From Candidatus Staskawiczbacteria bacterium (GTDB taxonomy: Bacteria > Patescibacteriota > Minisyncoccia > Minisyncoccales > Staskawiczbacteraceae): a stretch of DNA of 64,000 nucleotides. A program made the translations under genes and the position numbers. Of this stretch, positions 13,446 to 63,625 are shown one piece after another (position 1 is the stretch's first letter; each line of letters starts with the position of its first letter). The stretch is taken from contig CAIMWV010000035.1 of NCBI GenBank assembly GCA_903845295.1, positions 924 through 64,923 of the forward strand, written 5' to 3'. The notes beneath the pieces are model-generated. The model saw only the letters and a list, made by a program, of their open reading frames with translations, made no database searches and was not told the origin of the DNA.

Positions 13446-13458
13446 AATGTCGCACAAT
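13446..13458. repeat. Copy a of the 13-bp palindromic motif (AATGTCGCACAAT; consensus ATTGT-CGC-ACAAT)
   Basis: Intergenic, between GDH and the ECF sigma gene. Confidence 0.7.
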
Positions 13459-13494
13459 AAATATTTCGCAACATTTTATTAAAATAATGTTTAA

Positions 13495-14625
13495 TTAATA
13501 CCTCGCCTGTTTCTTCGTAATTCTGTTTACAGCTATTTCCATTCCCACGTCCCGCGGGTTTTTGTTTTCACTGACGCTTTTCTTCAATATAATCCTGACA
13601 TTTTTCGTAATTTTTTTATCTATTGTATCCATCATTCTTTTAGGATTATAACCGCGGTATTCAGCATAAGAAGAAATCACTCCTCCGGCATTAGCAATGA
13701 AATCTGGAACGACCCAGACTCCCTTCTTGAAAAATTCTTTTTCTATTTCTTCTGACATCGGAATATTACCTGCTTCAACAATCATCTTAGTTTTAATTTT
13801 GTCCTTGTTGCTATTGTTAATGACGTTTGTGACAGACGCTGGGATTAAAATATCTGTTGGAACCTCCCAAAATTTTTCAGCTGAAATTTTTTGGCCGTAG
13901 GGATAATCTTTCAAAGTTTTTTTATCTTTTATGATTTTTTCCAGTACTTCGTGATCAAATCCGCTTTCCTGGAAAATTGTGGTTTCCGCGTCAGCTAATG
14001 CAATAACTTTAGCCCCCATTTGTGTTAAAAATTTATAGGCGAATGTCCCTACGTTTCCAAAGCCATGGATGGCTACTCTGGCTCCGTTCATGTTTATTCC
14101 AAGAATTTCTGCCGCAGTTTCTGCGGTTTTTGCAACTCCAAATCCGGTGCTTCCATATTCATGCGGAATTCCGCATTTTTCGCCCGTCTTGCCGAATGCC
14201 TTCATACAGTAATTAGCCGGCTTGCCGGTAGCCGACCTCCAATCCCCTGTTGCCTCTACAAACCATTGCATTTCCTGCTCGCCTGTCTGGACGTCGGGAG
14301 CTGCAATATATTTTTTAGGGGTTAGCAATTTAACAGCCTTTGCAAAGCTTTGGACAAACTTCTTTTTCAGTTCAGGAGTTCCGCCTTTCCATATTATCCC
14401 GGCCTTAGCTCCGCCGAAAGGCAGATCAGCCAAAGCATTTTTAAATGTCATTGTCCTGGCCAGCCTGAAAACCTCCTCGGCCGTCACATTGGGAGTCATT
14501 CTGATCCCCCCTTTCCCGGGTCCTAAAACAGTATTGTCTATAACTAAAAAACCCTCCATTTTTAATTCGGGGTCATAAATATTTATTACATATTCGGGAC
14601 CAAACTCGTCTTTTAGGATTTCCAT
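13495..14625 (-). CDS. Glu/Leu/Phe/Val dehydrogenase family (glutamate dehydrogenase-like)
   Basis: 376 aa. Motif KGGIRMTP...GGAKAGI and NAD(P) Rossmann GFGNVG. Confidence 0.85.
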   Translation of the reverse strand: MEILKDEFGPEYVINIYDPELKMEGFLVIDNTVLGPGKGGIRMTPNVTAEEVFRLARTMTFKNALADLPFGGAKAGIIWKGGTPELKKKFVQSFAKAVKLLTPKKYIAAPDVQTGEQEMQWFVEATGDWRSATGKPANYCMKAFGKTGEKCGIPHEYGSTGFGVAKTAETAAEILGINMNGARVAIHGFGNVGTFAYKFLTQMGAKVIALADAETTIFQESGFDHEVLEKIIKDKKTLKDYPYGQKISAEKFWEVPTDILIPASVTNVINNSNKDKIKTKMIVEAGNIPMSEEIEKEFFKKGVWVVPDFIANAGGVISSYAEYRGYNPKRMMDTIDKKITKNVRIILKKSVSENKNPRDVGMEIAVNRITKKQARY

Positions 14626-14700
14626 ATTTGTTTTATATTTCTCATTTTTTAATTATTCATCAAGTTAATTATATCAGTACGTATTTTTTCTGCAAAAGTG

Positions 14701-15093
14701 TCACTTTATTATGCTTCCGGGCGGAATTTCCTTGTCCGGATGTAATAAAACCGGGTTGCCGTTATCTGACGGGCATAAAATCATTCCTTGCGATTCCAGG
14801 CCCTTCAGCATACGCGGAGCCAAATTATAGGCAAAAGGGCACTCTTTACCAATTAACGCCTCTGGGGCGTAAAATTGCGCTATTCCAGCGATAATCTGGC
14901 GCTTTATGCGTCCTTCAGTCTTATCCTCTTTCACTTCTATCCACTCGCCTGCAGGCTCCGGAACAATAGGTGCGGCGCCAAAATCAACAACAAGTTTCAT
15001 TAATTTTTCCGAACCTTCAACTTTCTCGGCGCTTAAAATTTTTCCGATTCTTATATCTAATTTTTTGAAATCTTCGAATGAAATTATATCCAT
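14701..15093 (-). CDS. tRNA-binding domain protein (CsaA/Trbp111/EMAP-like)
   Basis: MDIISFEDFKKLDIRIGKILSAEKVEGSEKLMKLVVDFG matches the OB-fold tRNA-binding domain. ORF track start 15138 is probably an N-terminal over-extension. Confidence 0.7.
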   Translation of the reverse strand: MDIISFEDFKKLDIRIGKILSAEKVEGSEKLMKLVVDFGAAPIVPEPAGEWIEVKEDKTEGRIKRQIIAGIAQFYAPEALIGKECPFAYNLAPRMLKGLESQGMILCPSDNGNPVLLHPDKEIPPGSIIK

Positions 15094-15120
15094 GTTTTTA
15101 AAATTTAATTTTATTCTAAA

Positions 15121-15133
15121 ATTGTCGCACAAT
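15121..15133. repeat. Copy b of the 13-bp palindromic motif (ATTGTCGCACAAT, perfect)
   Basis: 7 bp downstream of the helicase-nuclease stop and 27 bp upstream of the tRNA-binding protein ATG. Confidence 0.7.
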
Positions 15134-15138
15134 AACAA

Positions 15139-18084
15139 TTACTTTTGCGCAAAATCGCAGATTTCCTTGAAGTCGCAGTATTGGCACTGCCAGCCGGGCG
15201 TGGCCGTAAATTCGCTGTTTTTTATTTTTTCTATTTCTTGAACTATTTTTGACTTTTGGTTATGCAAATCATTTTCTGAACCTAAAAATGAGGCAAATTT
15301 TCCGTCGTCTAAATAATAATACGCAAGATGCTCGGGTTTTAAATGCAAAACTTCCTGAGCCGCTATCTGATAAATCAAAAGCTGTTCTTTTGCTTCGAAG
15401 TCCAGCTTGTCTTTTGATTGCCCTGTTTTGTAATCAATAATTACAACTCCATTTTTCCCCTGGTCAATTCTGTCGATTACTCCAAACAATGTGTGTTCGC
15501 CTACTTTCAGGTTAAAAGGCATTTCCAGGGCCAAGGAATCGTTTATTTTCAGAATTTTCGGAGGATTTTTGGAAAACTGGCCATAAAACTCTTTTATTAT
15601 CTCTTTTCCCTTTTTATAATATTCTTCTTTTTGCTTTTTTGATTCATACCATTCGTCAATCCAATTCTTTTCATATAGTTTTGCTAATTCATTGAAAACA
15701 TCTTCTTTCTTCTTTGTTTTCTTCGCCGGTTTTTCTCCAAACAAGGTTTCTTGTGCAACTTTTTTTTCTTCGTTAACCGATTTCAAAAATTCATGCAAGG
15801 TATTGTGCATTGTTTTGCCGAAAGAAAAAAATGCTTTGCCCCGGGTCGGCACCTTTAAGATAAATGCAAACTTGTACTGTAACGGACATTTTTCAAATGC
15901 AGCAAGCTGAGAATACGAAAAATGCTCCGGCAAATATTGCGGTTGGACTTTATTTTTTAGCCTATCTATTGGTTTTGGTTTTTCAGCTAAAATTCCCCCT
16001 TTCTCCATTTCTTTCTTATTGTCACTGCCTGCTTTATAATTCATTTCCGATAAAAATCTTGATATTTTCTTTTTTCTTTGGCCGCCGTAATCGTCAGCTG
16101 ATGTAAAATACAATCCTTTTTTAGCCCTTGTCATTGCCACATAGCAAAGGCGCCTTTCTTCCTGTAAATGCACATCTCCTTTTGGTTTTATGTCTTTTAT
16201 CAGGGCGTCAGGAAGCTCAATCGGGTCTTTTCTTTGGTCTGTCGGGAATCTTCTATCCACCATATTTACCAAAAACACGTATTTGAATTCCAAACCCTTT
16301 GCCCCATGGATTGTCATAACTTTTATCATGTCCGGTCCCCTTTCCGGATCAAATTCCAGCTTGCCTTCTTCTCCGGATTCTAACTCCAAATTCATTTCTT
16401 CCATGAAGTTTTTCAAGTTTGGCTCAACCGTCGTTTCCTCAAAGGTTTTTATTTTTTTATAAAACTGATTCAACAAATCAATTTTTTCTTCTTCATTTTT
16501 GTTTATTAAATATTTTAGATAGCCGGAATCCTCTAAAAACGAAACCAAGACTTCAGAGACTCCTTTTTCCCGCGCTTGACTGCTGTGTTTTTTTATTAAG
16601 CTTAAAATAAAAACTACTTTTTCCTGCGTTTTTGCTGAAATTCCCGGTATCAACGGCAATTGGTTCAAGGCTTCAAAAAGAGACAATGTTTTCCTGCGGC
16701 AAAACTGTGTGATTGTTGCTATATCTGCTTCCGGAATTTCTAAAAACGGCAAATTTAAAATTCTATAGACAGCCGTTCCTTCATGATAGTTGTCCAGCAA
16801 TTTAAAATAAGATACCACGTCCAAAATTATCGGTTTTGAATATAATCCCCTGGATGCCAAAAACTGGTAAGGCAGGTTAGCTCTTTCCAAGGCTCTTATA
16901 AATGGAGCGGCAGAATCGTTTGCGCGCACCAAAATGGCAAAATCGTTATATGTCGCCTCCTTATCCTTTTTTAAAATTTCTAAAATCTTTTTTAAGGTTT
17001 CACCCACTTCCTGATCCAAATTTTTAGTATGTATGTTTTCTATAGTTCCCTTCTCCTTTGTATCAGCGATGAGTTTTTTGTTTATTTTAGTTTGGAACTC
17101 TAGTCTATCCGGATCATTTTGTTTTATGAAATTATATGACTGGTCCAGAATATTCTGGGTTGACCTGTAGTTCCTGATAAGCGAAATCTGCTTTGCCTTG
17201 GGAAAATCTTTGCTGAATTGTACAATATTTGAAAAAGAAGCTCCCCGCCAGCGGTAGATTGCCTGGTCGTCATCAGCGCATACGGTTAAATTATTTTTGG
17301 GAGCGGCTAAAAGTTTGATTAATTCGTACTGCGCCCAGTTTGTATCCTGGAATTCATCAACTAAAATATATTTAAATTTCTCCCTGTATTTTTTCAAAAT
17401 CAACGGGCGCTTTTTAAAAAGCTTCAGGCAATAATTTATCAGGTCGCCAAAATCCAGCGCGCTGTTTTGCAGCAAAATCTGCTGGTAGGTATGATAAGCT
17501 TCAGCAATCTCTTTGATTCTCTCTACCTCTTGCGATTCCGGACCCTCGTCTCTTGTTTTCAGGCTGTCGGCGTATTCTAAATAATTTTCGGGATAAAGTG
17601 CCTCGTCTTTGCAATGGGAAAAATGGGAAATCAATGCCTGTATGAATTTTGTAGGATTTCCCAACGCCCTGTAATAATTCAAGTCAAACTTGTCTAAATT
17701 ATGGCGCGCCAAAAGCCAGCCGGAAGTGCCATCCAAAATTTTAAAATCCGGGCTGAGCCCGATATCTAAGGCATTATCGCGCAAAACCCTCTCGCAAAAA
17801 GAATGAAAAGTTGAAATCCACAAATCAACATATCCGTATTCTAAAAGCCTGTCTACCCTTTCCTCCATTTCAAAAGCTGCTTTCTCTGTAAAAGTAACAG
17901 CCAGAATTTCTTCGGGCGGAGCTAGTTTTTTTTCAATCAAACTTACGATTCTCTGGGTTATTACGGTCGTTTTACCGGTTCCTGCCCCGGCCACAATCAA
18001 AAGCGGGCCTTTATTATGAAGCATCGCTTCTTTTTGCTCTTTATTAAGTTTTAACAAATCTGACGGCATAAAATTATAATTCAT
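15139..18084 (-). CDS. UvrD/PcrA-family helicase fused to a C-terminal PD-(D/E)XK (RecB/Cas4-like) nuclease with a Cys cluster
   Basis: Walker A GAGTGKTTV near the N-terminus and UvrD helicase motifs. C-terminus carries CPLQYKF...IIDYKTG...ELLIYQIA...CQYCDFKEIC. Confidence 0.85.
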   Translation of the reverse strand: MNYNFMPSDLLKLNKEQKEAMLHNKGPLLIVAGAGTGKTTVITQRIVSLIEKKLAPPEEILAVTFTEKAAFEMEERVDRLLEYGYVDLWISTFHSFCERVLRDNALDIGLSPDFKILDGTSGWLLARHNLDKFDLNYYRALGNPTKFIQALISHFSHCKDEALYPENYLEYADSLKTRDEGPESQEVERIKEIAEAYHTYQQILLQNSALDFGDLINYCLKLFKKRPLILKKYREKFKYILVDEFQDTNWAQYELIKLLAAPKNNLTVCADDDQAIYRWRGASFSNIVQFSKDFPKAKQISLIRNYRSTQNILDQSYNFIKQNDPDRLEFQTKINKKLIADTKEKGTIENIHTKNLDQEVGETLKKILEILKKDKEATYNDFAILVRANDSAAPFIRALERANLPYQFLASRGLYSKPIILDVVSYFKLLDNYHEGTAVYRILNLPFLEIPEADIATITQFCRRKTLSLFEALNQLPLIPGISAKTQEKVVFILSLIKKHSSQAREKGVSEVLVSFLEDSGYLKYLINKNEEEKIDLLNQFYKKIKTFEETTVEPNLKNFMEEMNLELESGEEGKLEFDPERGPDMIKVMTIHGAKGLEFKYVFLVNMVDRRFPTDQRKDPIELPDALIKDIKPKGDVHLQEERRLCYVAMTRAKKGLYFTSADDYGGQRKKKISRFLSEMNYKAGSDNKKEMEKGGILAEKPKPIDRLKNKVQPQYLPEHFSYSQLAAFEKCPLQYKFAFILKVPTRGKAFFSFGKTMHNTLHEFLKSVNEEKKVAQETLFGEKPAKKTKKKEDVFNELAKLYEKNWIDEWYESKKQKEEYYKKGKEIIKEFYGQFSKNPPKILKINDSLALEMPFNLKVGEHTLFGVIDRIDQGKNGVVIIDYKTGQSKDKLDFEAKEQLLIYQIAAQEVLHLKPEHLAYYYLDDGKFASFLGSENDLHNQKSKIVQEIEKIKNSEFTATPGWQCQYCDFKEICDFAQK

Positions 18085-18100
18085 TTTACACCGACCGCGG

Positions 18101-18129
18101 AAAATTTACAAAAAAAGCCCGCAATGTCT
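18101..18129 (-). terminator. Rho-independent terminator (GCCCGCA-loop-TGCGGGC with a T7 tract on the minus strand)
   Basis: 7-bp GC-rich stem preceded on the plus strand by A7. Confidence 0.7.
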
Positions 18130-18184
18130 CATGCGGGCCTGCAAAACTCGAATCACTCGAATACGGCCTAGGATTTCGGGCCGT

Positions 18185-18370
18185 TTACCAAAATGAACTT
18201 AGCCGCCTGACTGGGGCCTGTTGGGGTGTTTCAATGGCGGGTGTATCTTCTTCGCCCTTCATCCTCCTTCTCATCCAAGGCGAAATATCGGGTGCTTTAT
18301 TCGCGTAAATATCAACGTGCGGTCCGTGTCTTTTCTCTTTCTTTTTTGATCTCGATGCTTTTCTGCTCAT
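18185..18370 (-). CDS. Small, highly basic 61-aa protein (hypothetical)
   Basis: Good SD (GAAAGGAGACTACG-ATG), flanked by terminators on both sides, K/R-rich. No family recognised. Confidence 0.45.
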   Translation of the reverse strand: MSRKASRSKKKEKRHGPHVDIYANKAPDISPWMRRRMKGEEDTPAIETPQQAPVRRLSSFW

Positions 18371-18451
18371 CGTAGTCTCCTTTCGCCTAGGAAAAACCGC
18401 TTAAAACATATTTTTATATAACATAATAATTGATTTGCTGCAAATATCAAT

Positions 18452-18478
18452 CAAAAACCGCCTTTCGGCGGTTTTTGA
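18452..18478 (-). terminator. Terminator (AACCGCC-TTTC-GGCGGTT with T-tract) after the surface protein gene
   Basis: 7-bp stem, UUCG-like loop, flanking A/T tracts. Confidence 0.65.
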
Positions 18479-18489
18479 TCGTTTGGATT

Positions 18490-20043
18490 TTATATTTTTC
18501 CTTTCAGCCAATCTGCGAAGACATAGACTTCACCTGAAAAGTAAAACCATAAGCCTGCGGCAATAATTAATAATGGCAGAAAGAATGAGTCTGTAAAAAA
18601 GTCATTGGTTAGTCCGGTTGATACGGTCGAAGCGCCGTATACTAAGGTTTTATTCACAACAACTGTAGCACTGCTGGTTTGTGTGCCTGCTTCAGTGCTG
18701 GTTACAGTTGCATTACTGGCTATAGTAGTGGCTCCGTAGCTGAAATTTCCCGCGGACGCCACTTGTACCTGATATGCCACCACAGTTGCCTGGCCGGCAT
18801 AAACTGTGCCGATATTTACTCCGGAGGTTATATCGCCGCCGTAGTTGGAATTTGTATTTACCATCAGATTCCCTCTATAGATAAGATCTGCGGGTAAAAT
18901 ATCCCTGACCGTCACGTTATGCACATCCTGGCCGTTAGCCTGCAAGGTTATGGCAAAAGTCAAAATGTCAGACGGACTGGCGCTAACCGATGAAGACCAA
19001 TTTAAGTTTCTTGAAGTAAGATTTATCACCTGTTTAGTTATTGTAAGGGAACCATTGCCATAATAATAGCCGTTTCCGGATCCCAAGGTGGTAAAAGTCA
19101 TGTCCTGGCCATAAACAGTTCCATAATTGCCTTGCGCAACCGCCCTGAAGTGGTATGTGGTACCAGAATTCAAATTTTCAATGTTTTGCATAAATGTCCC
19201 TGAATAACCTATAAACTGTTGGGACGTTGTATTGTTATAGTTAGATGTTGTCCCCCATTGGAAATAGACATAATTTGTTGCGGATGAATTAGCGCTGGAT
19301 AATGAGCCATTCAAGGTTACCTGAAAATTAGAAACGTACGTTGCATAATTTGTCTGAACATAGCTATTATTGCCGTTATTGTTTGAATTCATATAAACTA
19401 TCATGCTGTCCGAATTTGAACTTCCATAATTGTTGGTAACAGTAAGCGTGCAGGTATAAGTTATTTGATTATTATAATTGCTTACATATGGAGCCGTATA
19501 AACCGGCTGGGCAATATTATAACTTAATAATGTGCCGCCATTGCATGACCAGGAATAATTCAACGCATATCCGTTCGGATCATACCCGGAACCTTGCAAG
19601 GTTACAGTTTGTCCGGAGGTCAAATATAAATCCGGCCCGGCATTTGCTGTCAAAATATTGCCGTTTGACTGCCCTGTGACAAAAGTCATGTCCTGGCCGT
19701 AAACTGTTCCGTAGTTGTTTTGGGATACAGCTATAAAATGATAGGTTGTGTTTGGGGCCAATCCGGATATTGTTTGGCTGGACAACCCTGTGTAACTCTG
19801 CGTTGTGCCGGAAGTTTGATAGCCGTACGAGGTGCTGGTCCCCCACTGGAAATAAACTGTTGTGCTGCCATAACTGCCAAGGTACGTCACTGAAGCGTTA
19901 AGAGTGGCTGAATTATTTTGAATGTTTGTCGCGGAATTTGTCTGTATCTGGGGTGCAAATTGGGCTGAAACTCCCTCACCAAAAGAAAAACAAAGAACGG
20001 CAGTTACTCCGACCAAAAATATTAGTTTTGCTGTTTTTTTCAT
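18490..20043 (-). CDS. Large surface protein: signal peptide, two FN3/PKD-like repeats, DUF11-like domain, C-terminal TM anchor (paralog of 42281-44410)
   Basis: Repeated TTYHF(I/R)AV(S/A)QxNYGTVYGQDMTF blocks. DUF11-like LTITKQV...PSDILTFAITLQANGQDVHNVTVRD. C-terminal GASTVSTGLTNDFFTDSFFLPLLIIAAGLW hydrophobic anchor. Confidence 0.6.
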   Translation of the reverse strand: MKKTAKLIFLVGVTAVLCFSFGEGVSAQFAPQIQTNSATNIQNNSATLNASVTYLGSYGSTTVYFQWGTSTSYGYQTSGTTQSYTGLSSQTISGLAPNTTYHFIAVSQNNYGTVYGQDMTFVTGQSNGNILTANAGPDLYLTSGQTVTLQGSGYDPNGYALNYSWSCNGGTLLSYNIAQPVYTAPYVSNYNNQITYTCTLTVTNNYGSSNSDSMIVYMNSNNNGNNSYVQTNYATYVSNFQVTLNGSLSSANSSATNYVYFQWGTTSNYNNTTSQQFIGYSGTFMQNIENLNSGTTYHFRAVAQGNYGTVYGQDMTFTTLGSGNGYYYGNGSLTITKQVINLTSRNLNWSSSVSASPSDILTFAITLQANGQDVHNVTVRDILPADLIYRGNLMVNTNSNYGGDITSGVNIGTVYAGQATVVAYQVQVASAGNFSYGATTIASNATVTSTEAGTQTSSATVVVNKTLVYGASTVSTGLTNDFFTDSFFLPLLIIAAGLWFYFSGEVYVFADWLKGKI

Positions 20044-20136
20044 AGATTTTCAGGACTATATATCATAGTATATAGCGCATAGTCCTCACCTCCACACTCT
20101 AATCTTATTTAAATTTTTGTCAACATTTTTTATTTT

Positions 20137-30690: not shown

Positions 30691-30720
30691 AAAAAAGCCA
30701 CCTTAATCAAAGGTGGCTTT
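30691..30720 (-). terminator. Terminator (GCCACC-TTAATCAAA-GGTGGC with T6 on the minus strand)
   Basis: Stem preceded by A6 on the plus strand. Downstream of the tRNA-Gln copies on the minus strand. Confidence 0.65.
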
Positions 30721-30730
30721 GTCGCACAAT
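30718..30730. repeat. Copy c of the 13-bp palindromic motif (TTTGTCGCACAAT)
   Basis: Between the degenerate tRNA-Gln copy and the terminator hairpin. Confidence 0.7.
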
Positions 30731-30744
30731 GGAATTTGCTGCGG

Positions 30745-30820
30745 GACCTGCCTGCCGGCAGGCTTTGATTCTAACCAAGGTACTAGCCTTCAAAGGGCCA
30801 TGTCTACTTCACCCCGCCAA
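30745..30820 (-). pseudogene. Degenerate tandem copy of tRNA-Gln (retains the anticodon arm CCTTCAAAGGGCC and a T-arm-like segment; D-arm replaced; contains an inserted GCCTGCCGGCAGGC palindrome)
   Basis: About 45 nt are near-identical to the intact tRNA-Gln 80 bp away, but the acceptor and D-arm pairing is lost. Confidence 0.5.
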
Positions 30821-30845
30821 ATTTATCTTTACTTTTGAGCAAAGC

Positions 30846-30916
30846 TGCGGGACTTGGATTCGAACCAAGATACTAGCCTTCAAAGGGCCATGTCCTACCA
30901 TTAGACGATCCCGCAG
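30846..30916 (-). tRNA. tRNA-Gln (anticodon TTG)
   Basis: Manual fold: acceptor TGCGGGA/TCCCGCA, D-arm GTCT/GGAC, anticodon stem TGGCC/GGCTA with loop CTTTGAA, T-arm CTTGG-TTCGAAT-CCAAG, discriminator G. Confidence 0.9.
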
Positions 30917-35834: not shown

Positions 35835-35847
35835 ATTGTCGCACAAT
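35835..35847. repeat. Copy d of the 13-bp palindromic motif (ATTGTCGCACAAT, perfect)
   Basis: 36 bp downstream of the dnaX stop and about 120 bp upstream of the 913-aa gene. Confidence 0.7.
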
Positions 35848-41832: not shown

Positions 41833-41845
41833 TTTGTCGCACAAT
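41833..41845. repeat. Copy e of the 13-bp palindromic motif (TTTGTCGCACAAT)
   Basis: Convergent intergenic region between recR (+) and the metallopeptidase gene (-), 11 bp after the latter's stop. Confidence 0.7.
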
Positions 41846-56432: not shown

Positions 56433-56460
56433 ATATAAAGATATTCACTTGATTTGATAG

Positions 56461-56494
56461 TTCTCCCACATTTATCCACAGATTCCCACTTCAT
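56461..56494 (-). promoter_or_regulatory. Three direct repeats GTGGG-N5-GTGGA-N5-GTGGG (minus strand) with exact 10-bp spacing, just downstream of a TTGACT-N18-TATAAA promoter candidate (56499-56528); candidate MraZ operator
   Basis: CCCAC at 56465, TCCAC at 56475, CCCAC at 56485 on the plus strand. The arrangement resembles the GTGGN direct-repeat MraZ binding sites described in E. coli. Confidence 0.5.
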
Positions 56495-56605
56495 CTTATT
56501 TATAGTCCACTTTATGATACTTAGTCAACACCTTTGGCCAAAGACCTATTTTGTTCGTAAATAGGCCTATTTTTCCACCAGTTATCCACAGTTGAATTTT
56601 CGATA

Positions 56606-56618
56606 ATTGTCGCACAAT
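56606..56618. repeat. Copy f of the 13-bp palindromic motif (ATTGTCGCACAAT, perfect)
   Basis: Between two TTATCCACA boxes in the leuA / mraZ intergenic region. Confidence 0.7.
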
Positions 56619-56697
56619 GAGGGTTATCCACAAATTTGTAATAAAATAAGCTCCACCGAAGTGAAGCTTCAGCTGTTGAGGTTTTACACTCTAACAA

Positions 56698-58362
56698 CTA
56701 TGCTTTACTGCCCCTGTTAAGGGCACTTATAACCGCCTTGATCGAGGCCTGCTCGATGTTCGTATCTACTCCCGCTCCCCAACACATGCTTCCGTCAGGG
56801 AATTGAAGTTTGATATAAGAAATCGCGCTGGCCTCTTGGCCTGCTCCAAGCGCATGTTCAGCTTGATCAAGAACGCGTACATGGCAAATCTTTTCCAGTG
56901 AGCGGACGAATGCATCAATCGGCCCATTACCTTCTCCAGCCAACTGAAGATCCCTGTCTTCAAAAACAACGACTGACTGACAGTGGCATTTGCCAATTCC
57001 TGTGTCGGCCTCTGTATTGGACTGAAAGTGTTCGAGCCAGTAAGGAGCACCGCGCTCAACATATTCTGTCCAAAGCATTGCTTTCAATTCTGCGGATGTG
57101 ACTTCGCGGCCCAGAGCATCGATTTTCTTGCCCGCTATTGCACCGAATTCGCGCAGCATATCCTTAGGCAGATGGAGCCCGCACTCATTTTCCAGAAGCC
57201 ATGCTATGCCTCCCTTGCCAGATTGCCCGTTGACTCTTATCACTTCTTTATATTCCCGGCCGATGTCCCGAGGATCTATGGAAAGATAGGGCACATTCCA
57301 CGGAGCATTCCCGTCTTGGTCTCTTGCCCGCAATCCTTTGCGGATTGCGTCCTGGTGAGAACCGGAAAACGCAGTAAATACCAGCTCTCCGCTGTAAGGC
57401 TGGCGGGGAGGCACTTTCATCCCGGTACAGCGCTCATATATCTCGCGCAAAGAATCGATATCGGAAAAATCCAATTCCGGATCGATTCCCTGGCTGAACA
57501 AATTAAGCGCCACCGTCACAATGTCCAGATTTCCTGTCCGCTCCCCGTTTCCGAAAAGCGTGCCTTCCACGCGCTCTGCGCCTGCAAGCAGTCCAAGTTC
57601 TGTAGCAGCGACTCCTGTCCCGCGGTCATTGTGCGTATGAAGGCTTATGACTGCGCAATCGCGCCGGGACATGTTGCGGCAGAACCACTCGATCTGGTCT
57701 GCATGGACATTCGGAGTTGCCATCTGGACGGTATCGGGCAGATTGAGGATTATTTTATGTTGAGGCGTCGGCCCCCACACATCCATTACCGCCTCGCAAA
57801 CCTCGAGGGAGAAGTCTACCTCAGTCGCCGAAAAACTCTCTGGCGAATATTCAAAGGAAACTTCCGTTCCTTGAAGCCCTGCTGCATACTCCTTGACCCA
57901 CTTTGTCCCCTGCGCCGCCAGATCAACCACTTGCGGCTTCTCAAATCCAAAAACGATCTTGCGCTGAGCCGGCGAAGTAGAGTTGTATAAATGGATGGTC
58001 GCTTTATTTGCGCCAGCCAAAGACTCTGCTGTCCGCCTGATCAGGTCATCTCTAGCCTGCGTGAGAACCTGTATTGTCACGTCGCTCGGGATTAAGCGGC
58101 CTTCAATCAAGCGGCGGGTAAATCCGTATTCTGTGGGAGAAGCGGACGGAAATCCGATTTCAATTTCTTTGAATCCGCACTTGACCAGCATTAGAAACAT
58201 CTCTAGCTTCTGCTCGACGGTCATAGGTACCGCCAGTGCCTGGTTCCCATCGCGCAGATCAACGCTGCACCACCTTGGTGCTTTCGTGGTTGTCCGGCTC
58301 GGCCATTGGCGATCTTTGAGTTGAATGCCGTGAAACTGGATGTATTTGCCTGTCGGGTTCAT
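56698..58362 (-). CDS. leuA: 2-isopropylmalate synthase, long form with C-terminal LeuA allosteric/dimerisation domain
   Basis: HMGL-like TIM barrel (RDGNQAL...HTHNDRGTG) and C-terminal LeuA-dimer region. The gene is visibly more GC-rich than its neighbours and the GC-rich stretch contains many spurious overlapping ORFs on both strands in the ORF track. Confidence 0.9.
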   Translation of the reverse strand: MNPTGKYIQFHGIQLKDRQWPSRTTTKAPRWCSVDLRDGNQALAVPMTVEQKLEMFLMLVKCGFKEIEIGFPSASPTEYGFTRRLIEGRLIPSDVTIQVLTQARDDLIRRTAESLAGANKATIHLYNSTSPAQRKIVFGFEKPQVVDLAAQGTKWVKEYAAGLQGTEVSFEYSPESFSATEVDFSLEVCEAVMDVWGPTPQHKIILNLPDTVQMATPNVHADQIEWFCRNMSRRDCAVISLHTHNDRGTGVAATELGLLAGAERVEGTLFGNGERTGNLDIVTVALNLFSQGIDPELDFSDIDSLREIYERCTGMKVPPRQPYSGELVFTAFSGSHQDAIRKGLRARDQDGNAPWNVPYLSIDPRDIGREYKEVIRVNGQSGKGGIAWLLENECGLHLPKDMLREFGAIAGKKIDALGREVTSAELKAMLWTEYVERGAPYWLEHFQSNTEADTGIGKCHCQSVVVFEDRDLQLAGEGNGPIDAFVRSLEKICHVRVLDQAEHALGAGQEASAISYIKLQFPDGSMCWGAGVDTNIEQASIKAVISALNRGSKA

Positions 58363-58471
58363 GGCGAAATCCTTTCATTCGATCGGGTTGTTTGCCACAC
58401 TAAGATTGTAAAGGTGCTATCCCTTACACTCACGCCAAAATTTTCAAAAACTTTGGCGTGAGTGTAAAAAT

Positions 58472-58496
58472 CAAAAATCCTCCATCAGGAGGATTT
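58472..58496 (-). terminator. Attenuator terminator in the leuA leader (AATCCTCC-TGAT-GGAGGATT + UUUUUGAUUUUU on the minus strand)
   Basis: 8-bp stem followed by a U-tract on the leuA-sense strand. About 25 nt downstream of the leader peptide stop and 110 nt upstream of the leuA ATG. Confidence 0.5.
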
Positions 58497-58519
58497 TTGA
58501 TATAGAATTTATATTTGAT

Positions 58520-58621
58520 TTATATTCTTTTATCTTTATCAAAAACCTCCTGGCTTACCAAAAGCAGGCTTAACAACAAATTCAGCTGGAGGTTTAATTT
58601 TTTATCGCCTATATTTTGCAT
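58520..58621 (-). CDS. Leu-rich leader peptide (33 aa: MQNIGDKKLNLQLNLLLSLLLVSQEVFDKDKRI), probably leaderless or near-leaderless, upstream of leuA
   Basis: Manual translation of the minus strand. 9 Leu in a 14-residue stretch. The ATG lies about 7 nt after the -10 AATAAT of a TTGACA-N17-AATAAT promoter (58629-58657). Confidence 0.45.
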   Translation of the reverse strand: MQNIGDKKLNLQLNLLLSLLLVSQEVFDKDKRI

Positions 58622-58663
58622 ATGATGTATTATTGCAAAAACAAGTTATTCTGTCAACACCTT

Positions 58664-58676
58664 ATTGTCGCACAAT
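58664..58676. repeat. Copy g of the 13-bp palindromic motif (ATTGTCGCACAAT, perfect)
   Basis: 13 bp after the Clp-like gene stop and 7 bp upstream of the -35 box of the leuA-leader promoter. Confidence 0.7.
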
Positions 58677-58692
58677 AAAATAAAACACAATG

Positions 58693-61305
58693 CTAACCTT
58701 GCTTAGCCGGATTTACAATCAACTCAAAATTTTCCGGGTTGACTTCAATTTTATCCCCTTTTTTTATCTTATCGGATAAGAAAGCTTCTGCAACGGCATT
58801 TTCCACTTTATCCTGGATGACTCTTCTCATTTCTCTGGCGCCGAATTCCGGCTTGTAAGACAATTCAACGATCTTTTCTTTCAAAGGCTCGGTAATTTTT
58901 AAATCGATGTCTTTTTCTTTCAAATTTTTCTGGAGCGCCGATAAAGACAATTGAGCTATCTGCATTAAATTATCTTTTGTCAGGGGATGGAAAATTACAG
59001 TGGCATCAAAACGGTTTACAAATTCCGGCCTGAAAATATTTTTTTCGAAGATGGCATTCAATAATTTATCTTTTTCCAACGCCTGGTTGGATTCCACCTG
59101 TTTAAAAATCATGTCTGCGCCGGCATTTGATGTGCATATGATTATCGTGTTTGCAAAAACAACCTTCCTGCCCTGGCCGTCTGTTATGTGCCCCTCATCT
59201 AAAACTTGCAAAAAGAGATTTAAGATATTCGGATGGGCTTTTTCAATTTCATCCAGCAAAATGAGGGAAAACGGAGTTTCCCTGACAGGAGTCGTCAAAA
59301 GCCCTTGCATTTCTACGGGCGAAGTAGCTCCGATCAGCCTTGGGATATCTGAAATCGCCTGGAACTCTGACATATCGAGAGTTATCATTTTCTTTTCTGA
59401 ACCGAAATAAATTTGGGCCAGCGCTTTTGCGGTCTCGGTTTTTCCGACACCGGTAGGACCTAAAAATAAGAATGTCCCCATGGGCCTGGTTTTTGAGCTG
59501 ATTCCCATCCTTGCCCTCCTCATGGCGATTGATATTTCTTTTACTGCTTCTTCTTGGTTTACAATTCTGCTGTGAATCAGATTTTCTAAATTAAGCAAAA
59601 CTTCTTTTTCTTTAACTGCCATTTTACCGACTGGTATATTGGTTTTTTTAGAAACAATTTCAGCTATGTGGTGGGGCAAAACAACTTTTTCTTTTAACTT
59701 TTGCACATAAACAGCCGATTCGTCTAAAACATCCAGGGCTTTTTTAGGAAAAGGCAAAGAAGGCATATACCGCGCGGTCAAATTTACGATCTCGCGGATG
59801 GCCGGATACAACACCAAAATTTTGTGCGCATATTCTAATTCTAAAGCAGCTGATTGCAAAATATTTATTGTTTCCGCTTCGGTAACCTCCGAAACCTCAA
59901 CCTTTTCAAATAAATTTGCAAAGGAAGGATTCTCTTCTATATTTTTATGGAGTCCCTCATACGATGTTATGCCAATGAATTGGAAACTGGGTATCGGCAG
60001 GTACTTTGAAAGCATCCCGGATATGTCAAAAGCTCCTGCTTTTTGTACTTTTTGCCCGACAAAATTTTCAAGGTCATCAATGACTAAAATTACGTTCCCC
60101 GACGAAGCAACCTCCGCAAACATCTGGTCTAAAGCAGATTCCAATTTTTCAAAATCCGGTATTCGCGCGGCCAACAAAACAGCATCGAGCTCTACTACTC
60201 TTTTGTTATTTAATTGAGGCAAAGACATCCCTAAATAACATCTTTGGGCAAGAGCTTGGATTATACTTTTTCTGCCGGTTCCGGCATCTCCGACAATCAA
60301 AACATTGGCCAGACTGGATTTAGCCAAAATCACCTCGGTCTCCTCTATTTCTTTTTCATGGCCTATGATTTCCCTGAATTTCCATTTTGAAACAATTTTT
60401 TTCCAGTCAACAGAAAATTTGTCTAGAGTTATGGTATATCCGGATGAAAAATTTTTGCCCAAAGACCCTTTTCTCAATAAATTTTCGTATGTCCAAAATT
60501 TTCTGTTCTTTTCCATCAGATCTTCTGCGGAGTCTATCCATAAGGTTAAATCCTTGACATCTTCCGGCTTTAAATTAAAATCAACCAAAGTTTTTTTGAA
60601 AAAATCGTCTTCTGATGCTAGGGCAACTAAAATTTCCTTTTCCCCGATACTACAGTGCTGTCTGTCGGTTGAAACTTTAAGCGCAAGCTCTATTGTTTTT
60701 TGAAAGTCGTCTGAAAATGAATCCCCGGCAATATCCTGTTTTTGCATTTTTTCCAAATAATTTTTTATGTCAGCCTGCAACTTTTTAGGATTCAACCCCA
60801 ACCGTATGCAAATTAAGTTTATATCTTTGCTAAATTTTACAGCAGAATAAAAGAGCGAAGTTGAATTAATTGGAACTCTCTTCTTTTTACAAAAATCAAT
60901 TGAATCTAAAACAATTTTCGCTGCCTCAAAATTTAAAAATTCTGCCAGATTATAACTGGCTGGATGTGCGGCTGCATTCAAAATATCTATTTTATTTTCC
61001 GGCTTTTTAATTTTCAGTTCTGTAAACAAATCAATGTTCCAAAAAATAAGATAAAGAGACAGGAACAAAGCCAGCGTTTTTGCTGCAGAATATCCGGAAG
61101 TAAGATTTAAGAAAGAAAATCCTACAAGCAAAAATGCAATCAGAAACAGAATCAAAAAAACATTCTTTAAAATTTTGGCAAACTTAAATAAGGGAAAATT
61201 TTCCCTTCTTACTGCCTTAAAAATCTCTGTATTTTCTAAAGCAAAATTAAATGGCATACACTTAGTCCTATTGTTTAATAAAAAAATAAAATCCCGCTGT
61301 TGCAA
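58693..61305 (-). CDS. ClpA/ClpB/ClpC-family AAA+ ATPase with an N-terminal membrane anchor and a degenerate first Walker A
   Basis: Two N-terminal TM helices. Clp_N-like repeats. D1 GDAGTGRKS is non-canonical. D2 is canonical (GPTGVGKTETAKALA, sensor and Arg-finger regions, ClpB_D2-small). Confidence 0.7.
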   Translation of the reverse strand: MQQRDFIFLLNNRTKCMPFNFALENTEIFKAVRRENFPLFKFAKILKNVFLILFLIAFLLVGFSFLNLTSGYSAAKTLALFLSLYLIFWNIDLFTELKIKKPENKIDILNAAAHPASYNLAEFLNFEAAKIVLDSIDFCKKKRVPINSTSLFYSAVKFSKDINLICIRLGLNPKKLQADIKNYLEKMQKQDIAGDSFSDDFQKTIELALKVSTDRQHCSIGEKEILVALASEDDFFKKTLVDFNLKPEDVKDLTLWIDSAEDLMEKNRKFWTYENLLRKGSLGKNFSSGYTITLDKFSVDWKKIVSKWKFREIIGHEKEIEETEVILAKSSLANVLIVGDAGTGRKSIIQALAQRCYLGMSLPQLNNKRVVELDAVLLAARIPDFEKLESALDQMFAEVASSGNVILVIDDLENFVGQKVQKAGAFDISGMLSKYLPIPSFQFIGITSYEGLHKNIEENPSFANLFEKVEVSEVTEAETINILQSAALELEYAHKILVLYPAIREIVNLTARYMPSLPFPKKALDVLDESAVYVQKLKEKVVLPHHIAEIVSKKTNIPVGKMAVKEKEVLLNLENLIHSRIVNQEEAVKEISIAMRRARMGISSKTRPMGTFLFLGPTGVGKTETAKALAQIYFGSEKKMITLDMSEFQAISDIPRLIGATSPVEMQGLLTTPVRETPFSLILLDEIEKAHPNILNLFLQVLDEGHITDGQGRKVVFANTIIICTSNAGADMIFKQVESNQALEKDKLLNAIFEKNIFRPEFVNRFDATVIFHPLTKDNLMQIAQLSLSALQKNLKEKDIDLKITEPLKEKIVELSYKPEFGAREMRRVIQDKVENAVAEAFLSDKIKKGDKIEVNPENFELIVNPAKQG

Positions 61306-61678
61306 TAAATGGAATCAATATCCATAACAAAAAAAATATCAGCCCGGCAAAAATAACAAAAATTTGGAAAAAAATTCCGACTGCAATTAAGATAATCCTG
61401 ACTAAGGCTCCTAAAATTCTGGAAATTGCATTTGAAATAAGGGTGCTAAAAAATTCTCCAACATCAAATCCTTTAGGATAATTCCATTTATATTTGCGCC
61501 ACGGAGCAAAAAGCGATTTTAATAAGAGTGGAACTGAAAAATAATTTAGGGCAAATAAAATATAGTTTTTCCAAACTCCCAGTAAAAATTTCGGCATTTC
61601 ATAAAAATGCCAAAATAACCACACTACAAAAATATTTTTCTGCCCGCCGGCAGACATAGTTTTCTCTGCGATTTCCAT
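61268..61678 (-). CDS. Hypothetical polytopic small membrane protein
   Basis: 136 aa, 3-4 predicted TM helices, no motif recognised. Confidence 0.4.
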   Translation of the reverse strand: MEIAEKTMSAGGQKNIFVVWLFWHFYEMPKFLLGVWKNYILFALNYFSVPLLLKSLFAPWRKYKWNYPKGFDVGEFFSTLISNAISRILGALVRIILIAVGIFFQIFVIFAGLIFFLLWILIPFIATAGFYFFIKQ

Positions 61679-61679
61679 A

Positions 61680-62006
61680 TTATTTAATTAATTTTACACC
61701 AATTTCAGCAATCTTGCCACCGCCATAAATCAAAATCCATATTAAAAGCAGCCAAGTCACGAGGTTCAAAGTATTATCTATAAAATCAACTGGCAAAACT
61801 TTTATCAAAGCGTTTTGAATTTGCCCTTGGATATCAAGAGCGCTCACGTTTTGATTTACTTTTAGGGAAGTTGGCCTCACAAAAACCTGCGCTGGCATTG
61901 CCTTACCTGTAAAAATTCCATAAGTCTGCCATAACGGCAAAACTATTAACAAAACCCCGATAATTAACAAAATGTAACCTACAATTTTATTTGAACTCAT
62001 TGTCAT
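61680..62006 (-). CDS. Hypothetical small membrane protein (2 TM)
   Basis: 108 aa. Hydrophobic N- and C-terminal helices. Confidence 0.4.
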   Translation of the reverse strand: MTMSSNKIVGYILLIIGVLLIVLPLWQTYGIFTGKAMPAQVFVRPTSLKVNQNVSALDIQGQIQNALIKVLPVDFIDNTLNLVTWLLLIWILIYGGGKIAEIGVKLIK

Positions 62007-62385
62007 TTAATAACTCCTGGCGGATGTCTTCGGGGATTGGTATTTCCTCACCGGGTTTCGAAATCCCCGGATACCGCCAGGCGCTAATTATTTTTCGAAC
62101 CTGCCCTGAGCCGTGCCGAAGGGATTCTTTTACGTCTTTATACATTAACCAAATTTCTCCCGGGGCTTTTTTCGGCCTTTGCCAAGCCTTAGACAGGCTT
62201 ATTTGCTTTGTTTTGAAATAAACTTTGTTTGTTTTCATCGCGGCTAAGGTTCCAAGCACAATCCCCTTTTCTTTCCGTTCCGGCCTGTAAAGTATGCCCA
62301 GCAACTTTTGTTTCGAAAGCCCGTACTGTTTCATTTTTATTTTAGAATGTTCGGTCCAAAAAAGTTTTCTAAAATTACCGGCCAT
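61987..62385 (-). CDS. Hypothetical basic protein
   Basis: 132 aa, K/R-rich, no recognised domain. Confidence 0.35.
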   Translation of the reverse strand: MAGNFRKLFWTEHSKIKMKQYGLSKQKLLGILYRPERKEKGIVLGTLAAMKTNKVYFKTKQISLSKAWQRPKKAPGEIWLMYKDVKESLRHGSGQVRKIISAWRYPGISKPGEEIPIPEDIRQELLNDNEFK

Positions 62386-62735
62386 CAGTTCACTATTTTA
62401 ACTTTGTTTAAATCAAAGACCTCCTTTACTTCAATAACTACTGCATTTCTAACCTTATATTCTTTATTTTTCTGAACGCACATCTCAAAATATTTCCCCG
62501 AAGAAAAAATCTCAACATGACCTTTAATTCTAAAATACCCTCCAATAACGCAAATCCGGGGATTTTCTTTAAGGTTTTTAATCGCAGTCACCATTTGGCA
62601 ATCTGCAATCAATAATTTATCATGAAAAAAACCTAACGAAATTACAACATTCGCATTGGGATTTCCGCTCCGCGATGATGTGGCTAAAACTAATTCTTTG
62701 CCTTCTTTAAAATTATTTTTCCAGTTTATTGTCAT
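62385..62735 (-). CDS. Pyridoxamine 5'-phosphate oxidase-like FMN-binding split-barrel family protein
   Basis: 116 aa. Pattern VLATSSRSGNPNANVVISLGF...RICVIGGYFRIKGHVEI is typical of the PNPOx-like fold. Confidence 0.55.
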   Translation of the reverse strand: MTINWKNNFKEGKELVLATSSRSGNPNANVVISLGFFHDKLLIADCQMVTAIKNLKENPRICVIGGYFRIKGHVEIFSSGKYFEMCVQKNKEYKVRNAVVIEVKEVFDLNKVKIVN

Positions 62736-62846
62736 AAAAATTTGTGGGCGCGTGTGGACTCGAAAAGTTGCCCGAAGGCATCGCCTCCTCGCTTCGCTCG
62801 TCGCGATTCAGGGAGTCCCGCTTTGCGGGACGACCTCACCGACTTG

Positions 62847-62953
62847 CCCCGTTAGATATTTTTGTGGGCATTATAGGGGTCGAACCTATGGCCTTTCCGA
62901 TGTGAACGGAACGCTCTACCGCTGAGCTAAATGCCCATAGATATCTAACGGGG
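62847..62953. repeat. Inverted-repeat element E3: 13-bp perfect arms CCCCGTTAGATAT / ATATCTAACGGGG that enclose tRNA-Val
   Basis: Perfect inverted repeat. Same CCCGTTAGA core as E1 and E2. Confidence 0.55.
62865..62936 (-). tRNA. tRNA-Val (anticodon CAC)
   Basis: Acceptor GGGCATT/AATGCCC, D-arm GCTC-AGCGGTA-GAGC, anticodon stem TTCCG/CGGAA with loop TTCACAT, T-arm ATAGG-TTCGACC-CCTAT, discriminator A. Confidence 0.9.
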
Positions 62954-62961
62954 TGAATGAA

Positions 62962-62993
62962 CGGTGCGCTCTAACCAGCTGAGCTACGTGCCC
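62962..62993 (-). pseudogene. tRNA 5' half (acceptor + D-arm + 5' strand of anticodon stem: GGGCACGTAGCTCAGCTGGTTAGAGCGCACCG) with no contiguous 3' half
   Basis: Canonical acceptor and D-arm sequence. The complementary anticodon-stem strand CGGTG occurs only about 150 nt downstream, after the inverted-repeat-flanked tRNA-Val, at 62805-62809. Confidence 0.5.
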
Positions 62994-63069
62994 TTTATCC
63001 TATTAAAGAATTTTACCACTTTTGCAACAAAAAATCACGCTTTGCGCAGCGCGATTCTGGCTGTTTTCC

Positions 63070-63543
63070 CTATTCCTCGGGAAAACCAATAACTTGTATT
63101 TTCGGATATTTTTCTAATTCTTTCTGTTTTTCCGCAACGCGCTCAGAAAGAGTCAGGATGAAAATTTTGTCAAAACCAATGTAGGCAGTTAAGACAAAAA
63201 CATCTCCATTGATGTGGCAAAGCACTGATCCGATGTCTAGCACCGGAATAATTACCGTTGCCACAATTCCACGCGCCGCAAGTAAATCCTGAAGCAGCTC
63301 CTGATTCATTTCCAAGACATCTCTCGCCAATTGGCGCTCTTTAAGACTCTGAGTTTCTCTGCCGAGAGGACCGTGTTTTCCGGTCGGAAAACCTGCATTC
63401 TTGAATGCTTGGTTTATATTGACACCGCCGCCCACGAGAATGACAGTAAAATTGTGTGCAGCAACTTCTCTTAGCCACTCAATTACGTCTGCTCTGTCCA
63501 CCAAATCGCCTGAAATCTTCACCAGCGCTGTTGGTCTGGCCAT
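63070..63543 (-). CDS. Short amino-acid-kinase-fold protein (N-lobe-like; PyrH / isopentenyl-phosphate-kinase-like glycine-rich motifs)
   Basis: ALVKISGDLV...FTVILVGGGVNINQAFK resembles the KxSGE...GGG(N) amino-acid-kinase N-lobe. At 157 aa it is too short for a canonical kinase. Confidence 0.4.
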   Translation of the reverse strand: MARPTALVKISGDLVDRADVIEWLREVAAHNFTVILVGGGVNINQAFKNAGFPTGKHGPLGRETQSLKERQLARDVLEMNQELLQDLLAARGIVATVIIPVLDIGSVLCHINGDVFVLTAYIGFDKIFILTLSERVAEKQKELEKYPKIQVIGFPEE

Positions 63544-63612
63544 GTGCTGACCTCCGAAAGTTAGAAAAAAGGACTAAATATAAATTAACAAAAAATTATA
63601 AAAATGTCAACG

Positions 63613-63625
63613 ATTGTCGCACGAT
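63613..63625. repeat. Copy h of the 13-bp palindromic motif (ATTGTCGCACGAT)
   Basis: Directly after the rplL terminator and 3 bp before a TTGACA hexamer upstream of the amino-acid-kinase-like gene. Confidence 0.65.

Follow-up and report, generated by a model that had tools for sequence, protein, structure and literature searches.

The 64,000-nt stretch of contig CAIMWV010000035.1 analysed here (the window; coordinates are relative to its first letter) carries a short, quasi-palindromic DNA word that recurs along it in a single orientation, and which we propose may mark the polarity of the chromosome in Candidatus Staskawiczbacteria. The window is ~91% coding, 49 of its 58 genes lie on the minus strand, and the GC skew of the plus strand is negative throughout. 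Read on the plus strand the word is ATTGTCGCACAAT; read on the minus strand, the sense of most genes, it is ATTGTGCGACAAT. There are nine copies, four perfect and five with one mismatch, all on the strand that holds the gene majority and the G excess (two-sided p = 0.004 for nine of nine on one strand). Eight are intergenic, though only roughly 9% of the window is non-coding. In gene sense, the copies are as follows.

532-544, minus strand: one-mismatch copy ATTGTGCGACAAA, on the sense strand within a 157-aa HrcA-like open reading frame (ORF; 338-811, minus)
13446-13458, minus strand: one-mismatch copy ATTGTGCGACATT; a glutamate-dehydrogenase-like gene stops 36 nt before it and an extracytoplasmic function (ECF) sigma gene lies downstream
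15121-15133, minus strand: perfect copy, between a UvrD/AddA-like helicase-nuclease gene (stop codon 5 nt before it) and a gene with a tRNA_bind domain (27 nt after it)
30718-30730, minus strand: one-mismatch copy ATTGTGCGACAAA, past tRNA-Gln and a partial tRNA-Gln duplicate, with an intrinsic terminator directly after
35835-35847, minus strand: perfect copy, 35 nt past the dnaX stop and followed by a terminator
41833-41845, minus strand: one-mismatch copy ATTGTGCGACAAA, between convergent recR (plus) and a Zincin_1 gene (minus)
56606-56618, minus strand: perfect copy, between leuA and mraZ, with GTGGATAA boxes on its flanks
58664-58676, minus strand: perfect copy, with the stop codon of a ClpB-like gene 16 nt before it and the TTGACA of the leuA leader promoter 6 nt after it
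63613-63625, minus strand: one-mismatch copy ATCGTGCGACAAT, with the T-run of the rplL terminator immediately before it and a TTGACA 2 nt downstream

An earlier note on this DNA had reported eight of these copies, and all eight are present on the plus strand in the single orientation that it described. Its tally of five perfect and three one-mismatch copies has to be revised: only those at 15121, 35835, 56606 and 58664 are perfect, and one mismatch is found at 13446, 30718, 41833 and 63613 as well as in the overlooked ninth copy at 532. The statement that every copy is intergenic is right for those eight and wrong for the ninth, which lies in frame in the HrcA-like ORF, where ATT GTG CGA CAA encodes IVRQ. 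Most of the settings that the note gave could be recognized. The copy at 41833 lies in a convergent region, between recR and the Zincin_1 gene, and its orientation agrees with the majority (replication) direction; the copy at 30718 lies between a tRNA and its terminator, with tRNA-Gln and the degenerate partial tRNA copy on one side. Those at 58664 and 63613 are close to TTGACA -35 boxes, on the minus strand, at distances of 6 and 2 nt (3-7 bp in the note). Overlap of the copy at 15121 with a promoter spacer was not confirmed, no promoter being evident in the 45-nt spacer there. The absence of a fixed position relative to promoters stands: some copies have no promoter, and for the others the -35 box is anywhere from 2 to >70 nt away. 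Upstream of the copy at 13446, at 6 nt, a left-arm-like ATGTTGCGAAA matches an inverted arm at 7/11 positions.

Recurrence of this order exceeds what the composition of the window would produce. The perfect motif appeared in none of 100 dinucleotide-preserving shuffles; at up to two mismatches nine copies were observed against 2.2 expected, and no shuffle reached nine. Beyond the motif copies, the 7-nt core GTCGCAC has no further occurrence on either strand of the window.

A consensus built from 77 distinct copies in 476 kb of clade DNA defines the gene-sense motif as an asymmetric 15-mer, TT-ATTGTGCGACAA-T/A (W). The two upstream bases are T in 67 and 72 of the 77 copies. Positions 1-11 never vary, position 12 is mostly A (65 copies), and position 13 is mostly T (55 copies), with A in a further 18. 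Despite this asymmetric conservation, in which positions 1-2 are invariant and their dyad partners, 12-13, are variable, ATTGT and ACAAT form complementary arms (5+5; chance probability of the dyad symmetry ~1e-3). The core GTGCGAC lies inside the full motif in 77 of its 78 occurrences in the 476 kb; outside it, with both strands counted, one free core was seen where a 5th-order estimate predicts ~10, and the median for other words of equal composition is 22 occurrences. In more distant Parcubacteria the contexts of GTGCGAC are varied.

Three structural explanations can be set aside. Changes at positions 3, 12 and 13 occur without compensation and the folding energy of the hairpin is 0 to -0.4 kcal/mol, which together rule out function as an RNA or single-stranded DNA hairpin. 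The same values remove the earlier note's option of a repetitive extragenic palindrome (REP), since elements of the REP/RAYT (REP-associated tyrosine transposase) type are imperfect palindromes of 20-40 nt with a stable hairpin and a Y1 transposase; the IS200-like Y1_Tnp genes in two relatives (L242 and L247) have hairpins of their own, unrelated to the motif. Nor do the copies form the ends of a longer dispersed repeat, an outcome that the note had named as a possible refutation, because their flanks are unrelated beyond TT and T/A.

The DnaB encoded in the window is 84-98% identical to that of many metagenome-assembled Candidatus Staskawiczbacteria, members of the candidate phyla radiation (CPR, or Patescibacteria). 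In a set of 80 DnaB-centred loci from GTDB species (loci carry L numbers), the motif at up to one mismatch was present only in the nine with a DnaB at least 80% identical, always oriented as in the window; at this threshold 70 more distant Parcubacteria DnaB loci had no copy, bar one probable chance match. The core is rare in more distant Staskawiczbacteria loci, but all four of its occurrences there are ATTGTGCGAC, and variants of the motif such as ATTATGCGACAAA are seen in relatives. In close relatives the density is ~1 per 7-14 kb, in intergenic and coding DNA. Individual sites turn over rapidly: the motif-plus-terminator unit behind dnaX is found only in the window genome and L003, being absent in seven relatives, and the copy behind recR only in the window genome and L011. 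Scanned with TTATTGTGCGACAAT, public metagenome contigs yielded 120 loci, ~48 of them CPR-like by tetranucleotide composition; the same scan of viral contigs, a negative control, gave 36 single unrelated matches, consistent with chance and none CPR-like. In a full-text literature search the motif string turned up in nothing but primers of unrelated studies, and searches on CPR together with uptake sequences or FtsK-orienting polar sequences (KOPS) found nothing on the motif.

A gene for a Xer-type tyrosine recombinase is present in 11 of the ~48 CPR-like loci matched by the perfect 15-mer, where ~0.5 would be expected. Xer orthologues were collected, and 20 kb around xer was taken from eight further genomes. 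The region is syntenic: murL/murD, ftsW, murG, gltX, a small ORF and then xer lie on one strand, followed past xer by LAGLIDADG/HNH endonuclease genes or an IS200-like element and then by uppS, pyrG, rplI and ctpA on the opposite strand. A dif-like sequence, TTCGCATAATTATAGTTAA, occurs once per locus in 11 distinct genomes (0-1 mismatch), ~30-100 nt upstream of the single xer gene, and nowhere else among 258 loci; no dif-like site was found within the window. In the form TTCGCATAATTATAGTTAA(G)CGAA, it is located at these positions.

L247, 9970-9988
L249, 9944
L251, 9961
L253, 9930
L255, 9900
L256, 9968
L257, 9715
L258, 9956
L091, 3791
L117, 7446-7464, minus strand
L119, 470, minus strand

The left arm of this site, AGTTCGCATAA, equals the E. 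coli XerC arm (GGTGCGCATAA) at 9/11 bases, and is followed by a 6-bp AT-rich centre and an imperfect inverted arm, TTAAGCGAA. To the right of the site, within ~1-3 kb, gene orientation and both skews (GC and AT) converge, the skews changing sign at 1-2 kb. Its build and position make TTCGCATAATTATAGTTAA a candidate dif, and its location a candidate terminus, for Staskawiczbacteria. A second lineage (L139, L158, L144 and L105; Xer ~47-50% identical) has a conserved 28-mer, ATGTCGCAAAA-GWATTA-TTGTGCGACAA, 50-830 nt upstream of xer. It consists of two inverted motif-like arms around a 6-bp spacer, and its right arm plus TTA is the motif itself. This 28-mer may be the dif of that lineage, and its arms hint that the polarity word and Xer binding are connected through evolution or mechanism. 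Its occurrences (ATGTCGCAAAAGWATTATTGTGCGACAA) are the following.

L139, 1426-1471
L158, 5296-5325
L144, ~342-371
L105, ~2680-2709

A first guess at dif, the L116/L187 inverted repeat GGCCATTTTTAGCCCAAAATTGCC, was discarded as it is present only in those two related loci. In the same two loci (L116 12705-12730, L187 11959-11984) a conserved inverted repeat, GGCCATTTT-TAGCCC-AAAATTGCC, comes right after the last plus-strand gene near xer, and might be the dif of the subclade that lacks the TTCGCATAATTATAG site. Selfish genes gather just right of xer, namely LAGLIDADG homing endonucleases (one degenerate), an HNH endonuclease and an IS200-like Y1 transposase, at these positions.

L091, 4780-6404
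L247, 11572-12006 and 15589-16098
L249, 11154-11648
L251, 10988-12651
L253, 10944-13828

With the loci turned so that xer lies on the plus strand, motif orientation (M+ or M-) inverts at the dif-like site. At up to two mismatches there are 18 M+ and 1 M- copies to its left and 4 M+ and 26 M- to its right (Fisher p = 1e-8); at up to one mismatch the counts are 10 to 0 and 2 to 12 (Fisher p = 7e-5). Hence 44/49 and 22/24 copies, respectively, are on the expected strand. The motif flips at the dif-like site itself, and gene orientation switches 1-3 kb further right. In the interval lie xer and up to three more plus-strand genes, and the motif copies flanking them are oriented toward dif, against the genes. 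Because genes run with replication, replication-linked and transcription-linked orientation are inseparable in ordinary loci; of the 11 sites at which gene direction calls for one orientation and the side of dif for the other, 10 obey the dif side. These conflict sites include a conserved copy 25-45 nt past the xer stop, between plus-strand genes in L247, L249, L255, L256 and L117. This copy, often a doublet, and another 240-580 nt left of dif are conserved across genomes, and other intergenic copies turn over quickly in genomes that keep these two. Moreover, the density of copies with up to one mismatch falls with distance from dif, from 0.33 per kb within 1.5 kb to 0.17 (1.5-3 kb), 0.08 (3-5 kb) and 0.07 (5-10.5 kb), so that it is raised ~fivefold close to the site.

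These results bear on two further suggestions of the earlier note. Its option of a chromosome-architecture or strand-biased element is borne out, orientation being set by the side of the dif-like site around which copies concentrate. The tie that it drew between a CGC or GCG centre and the coding sense of adjacent genes is a by-product of genes running with replication; at 10/11 conflict sites the motif keeps to the side of dif. Two other approaches to replication direction were uninformative: skew at third codon positions (GC3) is too noisy a marker in short loci, where syntenic relatives gave opposite signs, and a test of minority-strand junctions through glycosyltransferase homologues failed as synteny was not conserved.

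Across 71 distinct clade copies, ~60% are intergenic and ~40% lie in ORFs, a share somewhat inflated by the over-calling of small ORFs. The coding copies are nearly all sense-oriented and include copies in essential genes; at least two frames are used, one giving IVRQ and another, in a Mur-ligase-like gene, LLCDN. This fits a signal that acts as DNA and sits wherever genes can accommodate it. Annotation of the window's genes with Pfam/NCBIfam yielded no obvious reader protein for the motif; the DNA-binding candidates among them are MarR, the ECF sigma factor, the HrcA-like protein and MraZ.

The window and related loci hold several other features. An Rfam scan of the window identified three tRNAs only, with no match for 780-1760 or the leuA leader, and related loci gave nothing new. 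The leader (58520-58657, minus strand) has a TTGACA-17-AATAAT promoter 7 nt before a leaderless, leucine-rich ORF of 33 codons, MQNIGDKKLNLQLNLLLSLLLVSQEVFDKDKRI, which has no Rfam match and is followed by terminator-like hairpins upstream of leuA; the whole looks like a leucine leader-peptide attenuator. Between the motif at 30718 and the intact tRNA-Gln (30845-30915), a degenerate duplicate of the tRNA-Gln 3' half with an inserted hairpin (30737-30804, minus strand) looks like what a past integration at the tRNA left behind. In L006 the orthologous copy comes directly after the intact tRNA-Gln, at 5 nt. A GC-rich 900-nt stretch without an ORF (812-1711) lies behind a TTGACA promoter, has no Rfam match even at E <= 0.1 and may be an unrecognized structured RNA; beside it, at 854-955, is a duplicated fragment of the N terminus of the HrcA-like gene. 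Upstream of mraZ (56433-56697) there are 3 to 5 GTGGATAA / TTATCCACA boxes (perfect DnaA-box sequence), and TTATCCACA is also conserved just upstream of the promoter of a DUF3160 gene in L003, L004, L008 and L011. These boxes could be MraZ or DnaA sites. Convergent to recR in L004, L005, L010 and L011 (~12050-12400) is a GC-rich, apparently structured non-coding sequence without an Rfam match, after which, in L011, the motif and a terminator follow. Other Parcubacteria lineages have repeated perfect palindromes of their own, 20-36 bp long (for example GAGTTAGGCTTAGCCTAACTC and CACTACGAGAACWGTTCTCGTAGTG), and one has a HIP1-like TGCGATCGCA; lineage-specific short repeats seem common in Parcubacteria. 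Loci with such palindromes or repeats are listed here.

L016, 2946, 2991 and 14237
L027, 19293-20068
L072, 5061-9097
L081/L017
L022, 8715-11054
L051

We consider it somewhat more probable than the alternatives combined that the motif is a replichore-polarity signal of a genus-level Staskawiczbacteria clade, most likely with the function of KOPS or of SpoIIIE recognition sequences (SRS), steering an FtsK/SpoIIIE-type translocase to dif. The motif is over-represented and strand-skewed, it inverts and is enriched at the dif-like site, and its orientation is independent of local gene direction. Under the proposed mechanism, copies of (TT)ATTGTGCGACAA(T/A) on the leading strand, ~1 per 7-14 kb, would point from the origin side toward the dif-like site; a directional translocase of the FtsK/SpoIIIE type would read them and be steered to dif, where Xer would resolve chromosome dimers. 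The copies in the window point to low coordinates, which would place dif past its left end. By this reading the dif-like site would be a functional dif and the terminus, the reader is presumably FtsK, and the minus strand of the window would be the leading strand, as deduced from gene bias, skew and the position of dif.

The comparison with KOPS rests on published criteria for their prediction: over-representation, leading-strand skew, inversion at dif with at least 90% skew, and at least one copy per 40 kb in the dif region (PMC3384302). For the motif we found nine copies in the window against ~0 expected and 77 full motifs in 476 kb; 9/9 copies on one strand in the window and 22/24 or 44/49 on the expected strand near dif; orientation ratios of 18:1 on the left and 4:26 on the right; and 0.07-0.33 copies per kb within 10.5 kb of dif. 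It is because of this agreement that we favour a KOPS-like signal.

Several points weigh against that reading. The known KOPS word is 7-8 bp, non-palindromic and purine-rich, and the motif has 13-15 positions with 5+5 complementary arms. Some 60% of copies lie in ~9% of the DNA, whereas known KOPS and SRS have no strong intergenic preference. Two copies right of dif, and one at L091 +4830, are oriented the wrong way; both of those right of dif lie behind a LAGLIDADG homing-endonuclease gene, with which they probably travelled. The conflict sites near xer are partly orthologous and represent fewer than 11 independent events, one subclade (L116, L187, L128 and L127) has xer and no recognizable copy of this dif sequence, and the polarity data cover loci of up to ~20 kb around xer plus the 64-kb window rather than whole genomes. 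Finally, FtsK is a presumed reader in this clade; it is reported in another CPR lineage, Saccharibacteria TM7x. The length and dyad shape of the motif and the depletion of its free core would fit a dimeric polar binder (Ter/RTP-like) about as well as the FtsK gamma domain. A distinctly less probable version, which we nevertheless take seriously, is that this CPR lineage marks polarity with dispersed Xer-arm-like half-sites, read by Xer, by an FtsK with a new DNA-reading domain or by a dimeric polar binder.

A Chi-like signal would also give a polar distribution. Here an AddAB/RecBCD-type helicase-nuclease would read the motif on single-stranded DNA at broken forks, and its leading-strand orientation would protect the chromosome and stimulate recombination. 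Chi sites are likewise over-represented, skewed to the leading strand and inverted at the terminus (PMC3384302), and the window itself encodes, at 15139-18084, a UvrD/AddA-like helicase with a C-terminal Cas4-type nuclease domain, for which no AddB or RecC partner was seen. We nonetheless regard this explanation as unlikely: known Chi sites are 5-8 nt and have no special relation to dif, as against 13-15 nt and fivefold enrichment at dif, and Chi function predicts neither the rise in density nor the conserved, inward-pointing copies on either side.

About as improbable, in our estimate, is a polar barrier of the Ter/RTP type, in which a dimeric protein bound to the quasi-palindrome lets replisomes or RNA polymerases pass one way only, so that sites must be co-directional with replication and opposed across the terminus. 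Orientation is in fact opposed across dif, doublets lie just right of xer, and both the 5-3-5 dyad with its asymmetric centre and flank and the depletion of the free core on both strands suit such a protein. However, known fork traps have ~10 sites near the terminus and not ~100 genome-wide, whereas copies of the motif lie throughout a 64-kb window that has no dif. The half-sites are unequally conserved, and no candidate terminator protein was found.

Solo Xer arms offer a third explanation, and one that we would rate as poorer still. Each copy would represent one half of a dif, made up of an 11-bp arm and half of the centre, and would be bound by Xer as an accessory or guiding site. The second-lineage 28-mer upstream of xer, whose right arm plus TTA is the motif, speaks for such a relation, as does the reverse complement of the motif, TTGTCGCACAAT, which resembles the left dif arm AGTTCGCATAAT at 8/12 positions. 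A partner arm at 6-nt spacing (>=7/11 matches) accompanies 8/106 copies, compared with 0.8% in the null. Most copies thus have no partner arm, the dif of the window's own clade is no more than moderately similar, and tyrosine recombinases bind isolated arms weakly. The scarcity of partner arms, along with the different sequence of the clade's dif candidate, also rules out the motif as a full dif.

Where the copies sit could suggest an element linked to gene 3' ends, one that would work at the close of transcription units, through the RNA or through the polymerase, in termination, processing or stability. Intergenic copies bunch just past the upstream stop codon (15/34 within 16 nt), several abut a terminator T-run or precede a terminator, convergent regions are commoner than divergent ones (9 to 2), and the genes upstream are tRNA-Gln, presumed non-coding RNA and protein genes alike. 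This reading is largely refuted, and we give it very little weight. At 10/11 conflict sites it is the side of dif and not gene direction that is obeyed, ~40% of copies lie in genes, essential ones included, a quarter of the intergenic copies are located beyond a terminator T-run, hairpin energy is ~0, and some copies are antisense to their neighbours (L139, L144/L158). Positions behind stops and terminators are best read as the places where a 15-bp word fits in a 91%-coding genome, rather than as regulatory.

A DNA uptake sequence, a clade tag favouring the uptake of self-DNA by competence or type IV pilus machinery, is just as hard to sustain. High copy number, an invariant 12-15-mer, restriction to a clade with variant forms in relatives, copies in coding frames and beside terminators, rapid site turnover and the type IV pilus genes of relatives would all be in keeping with it. 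Yet known uptake sequences are not generally biased in their genomic orientation (PMC2346458) and reach a density of ~1 copy per kb, and the motif, at ~1 per 7-14 kb, is some tenfold sparser, is at least 90% polar, and inverts and is enriched at dif.

The least probable explanation is the operator of a dimeric transcription factor, a generic nucleoid-protein site or an extended -10 promoter: the dyad symmetry, four copies 0-6 nt upstream of a -35 box and the resemblance of the motif (TGTGcGACAAT) to the extended -10 promoters that the clade employs (TGTGgTATAAT) are outweighed by a polarity bound to dif, unequal half-sites, the lack of fixed promoter geometry and the excess of convergent over divergent regions. 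A promoter is ruled out by the terminator at 0-16 nt or start codon at 2 nt that follows several copies, with canonical promoters further downstream. The earlier note had preferred the site of a symmetric dimeric regulator, a view that asymmetric conservation, variable promoter position and the ~40% of clade copies in coding DNA do not sustain.

We know of nothing established about chromosome segregation and dimer resolution in Patescibacteria/CPR, which cannot be grown alone. If the KOPS-like reading is right, the known range of polarity signals would widen to include a dyad-shaped, Xer-arm-related word twice as long; if the half-site version is right, ultra-small genomes would have a new solution for directing dimer resolution and segregation. 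In either case a concrete dif candidate, TTCGCATAATTATAGTTAA, and a single-recombinase Xer system can now be named for Staskawiczbacteria. Motif orientation should indicate replication direction and terminus on contigs of the clade, an aid to checking assemblies, ordering contigs and finding inversions, and a defined 15-mer makes binding by FtsK gamma or Xer directly testable.

Among known systems, the motif is most readily set beside KOPS and SRS, which are likewise over-represented, at least 90% on one strand of each replichore, inverted at dif, and denser and more skewed near it. Frequencies are also alike, 1 per 7-14 kb for the motif and 1 per 12-22 kb for known KOPS (PMC3384302). It differs from these short purine-rich words in being quasi-palindromic over 13-15 bp and AT-rich around its GTGCGAC core, enriched between genes, limited to a genus-level clade and similar to a Xer-binding arm. 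Chi sites share with it the character of short, over-represented, leading-strand-skewed words whose orientation follows replication, but they are mostly coding as well as shorter (5-8 nt), and neither concentration nor conserved flanking copies at dif are reported for them.

Set beside dif sites and their Xer-binding arms (XerCD-dif, XerS-difSL and XerH-difH), the motif shares TCGCA(C)AA with the clade's dif-like arm TCGCATAA and with the E. coli XerC arm GCGCATAA, but its ~100 solo copies per genome have no partner arm, and the clade's dif candidate is a different, unique sequence. That candidate, adjoining a single Xer recombinase gene, resembles the XerS/difSL arrangement of Lactococcus. 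DNA uptake sequences and uptake signal sequences (DUS/USS) are, like the motif, clade-specific invariant words (10-12-mers) found in terminator regions and coding frames with turnover of sites, but have no general orientation bias, ~10 times the density and no relation to dif. Lastly, matS has the same 13 bp and 5-3-5 geometry; matS and the sites bound by Noc and SlmA are present in tens of copies per genome, and their meaning depends on where on the chromosome they lie. Whereas those sites are symmetric and non-polar, the motif is asymmetric and polar.

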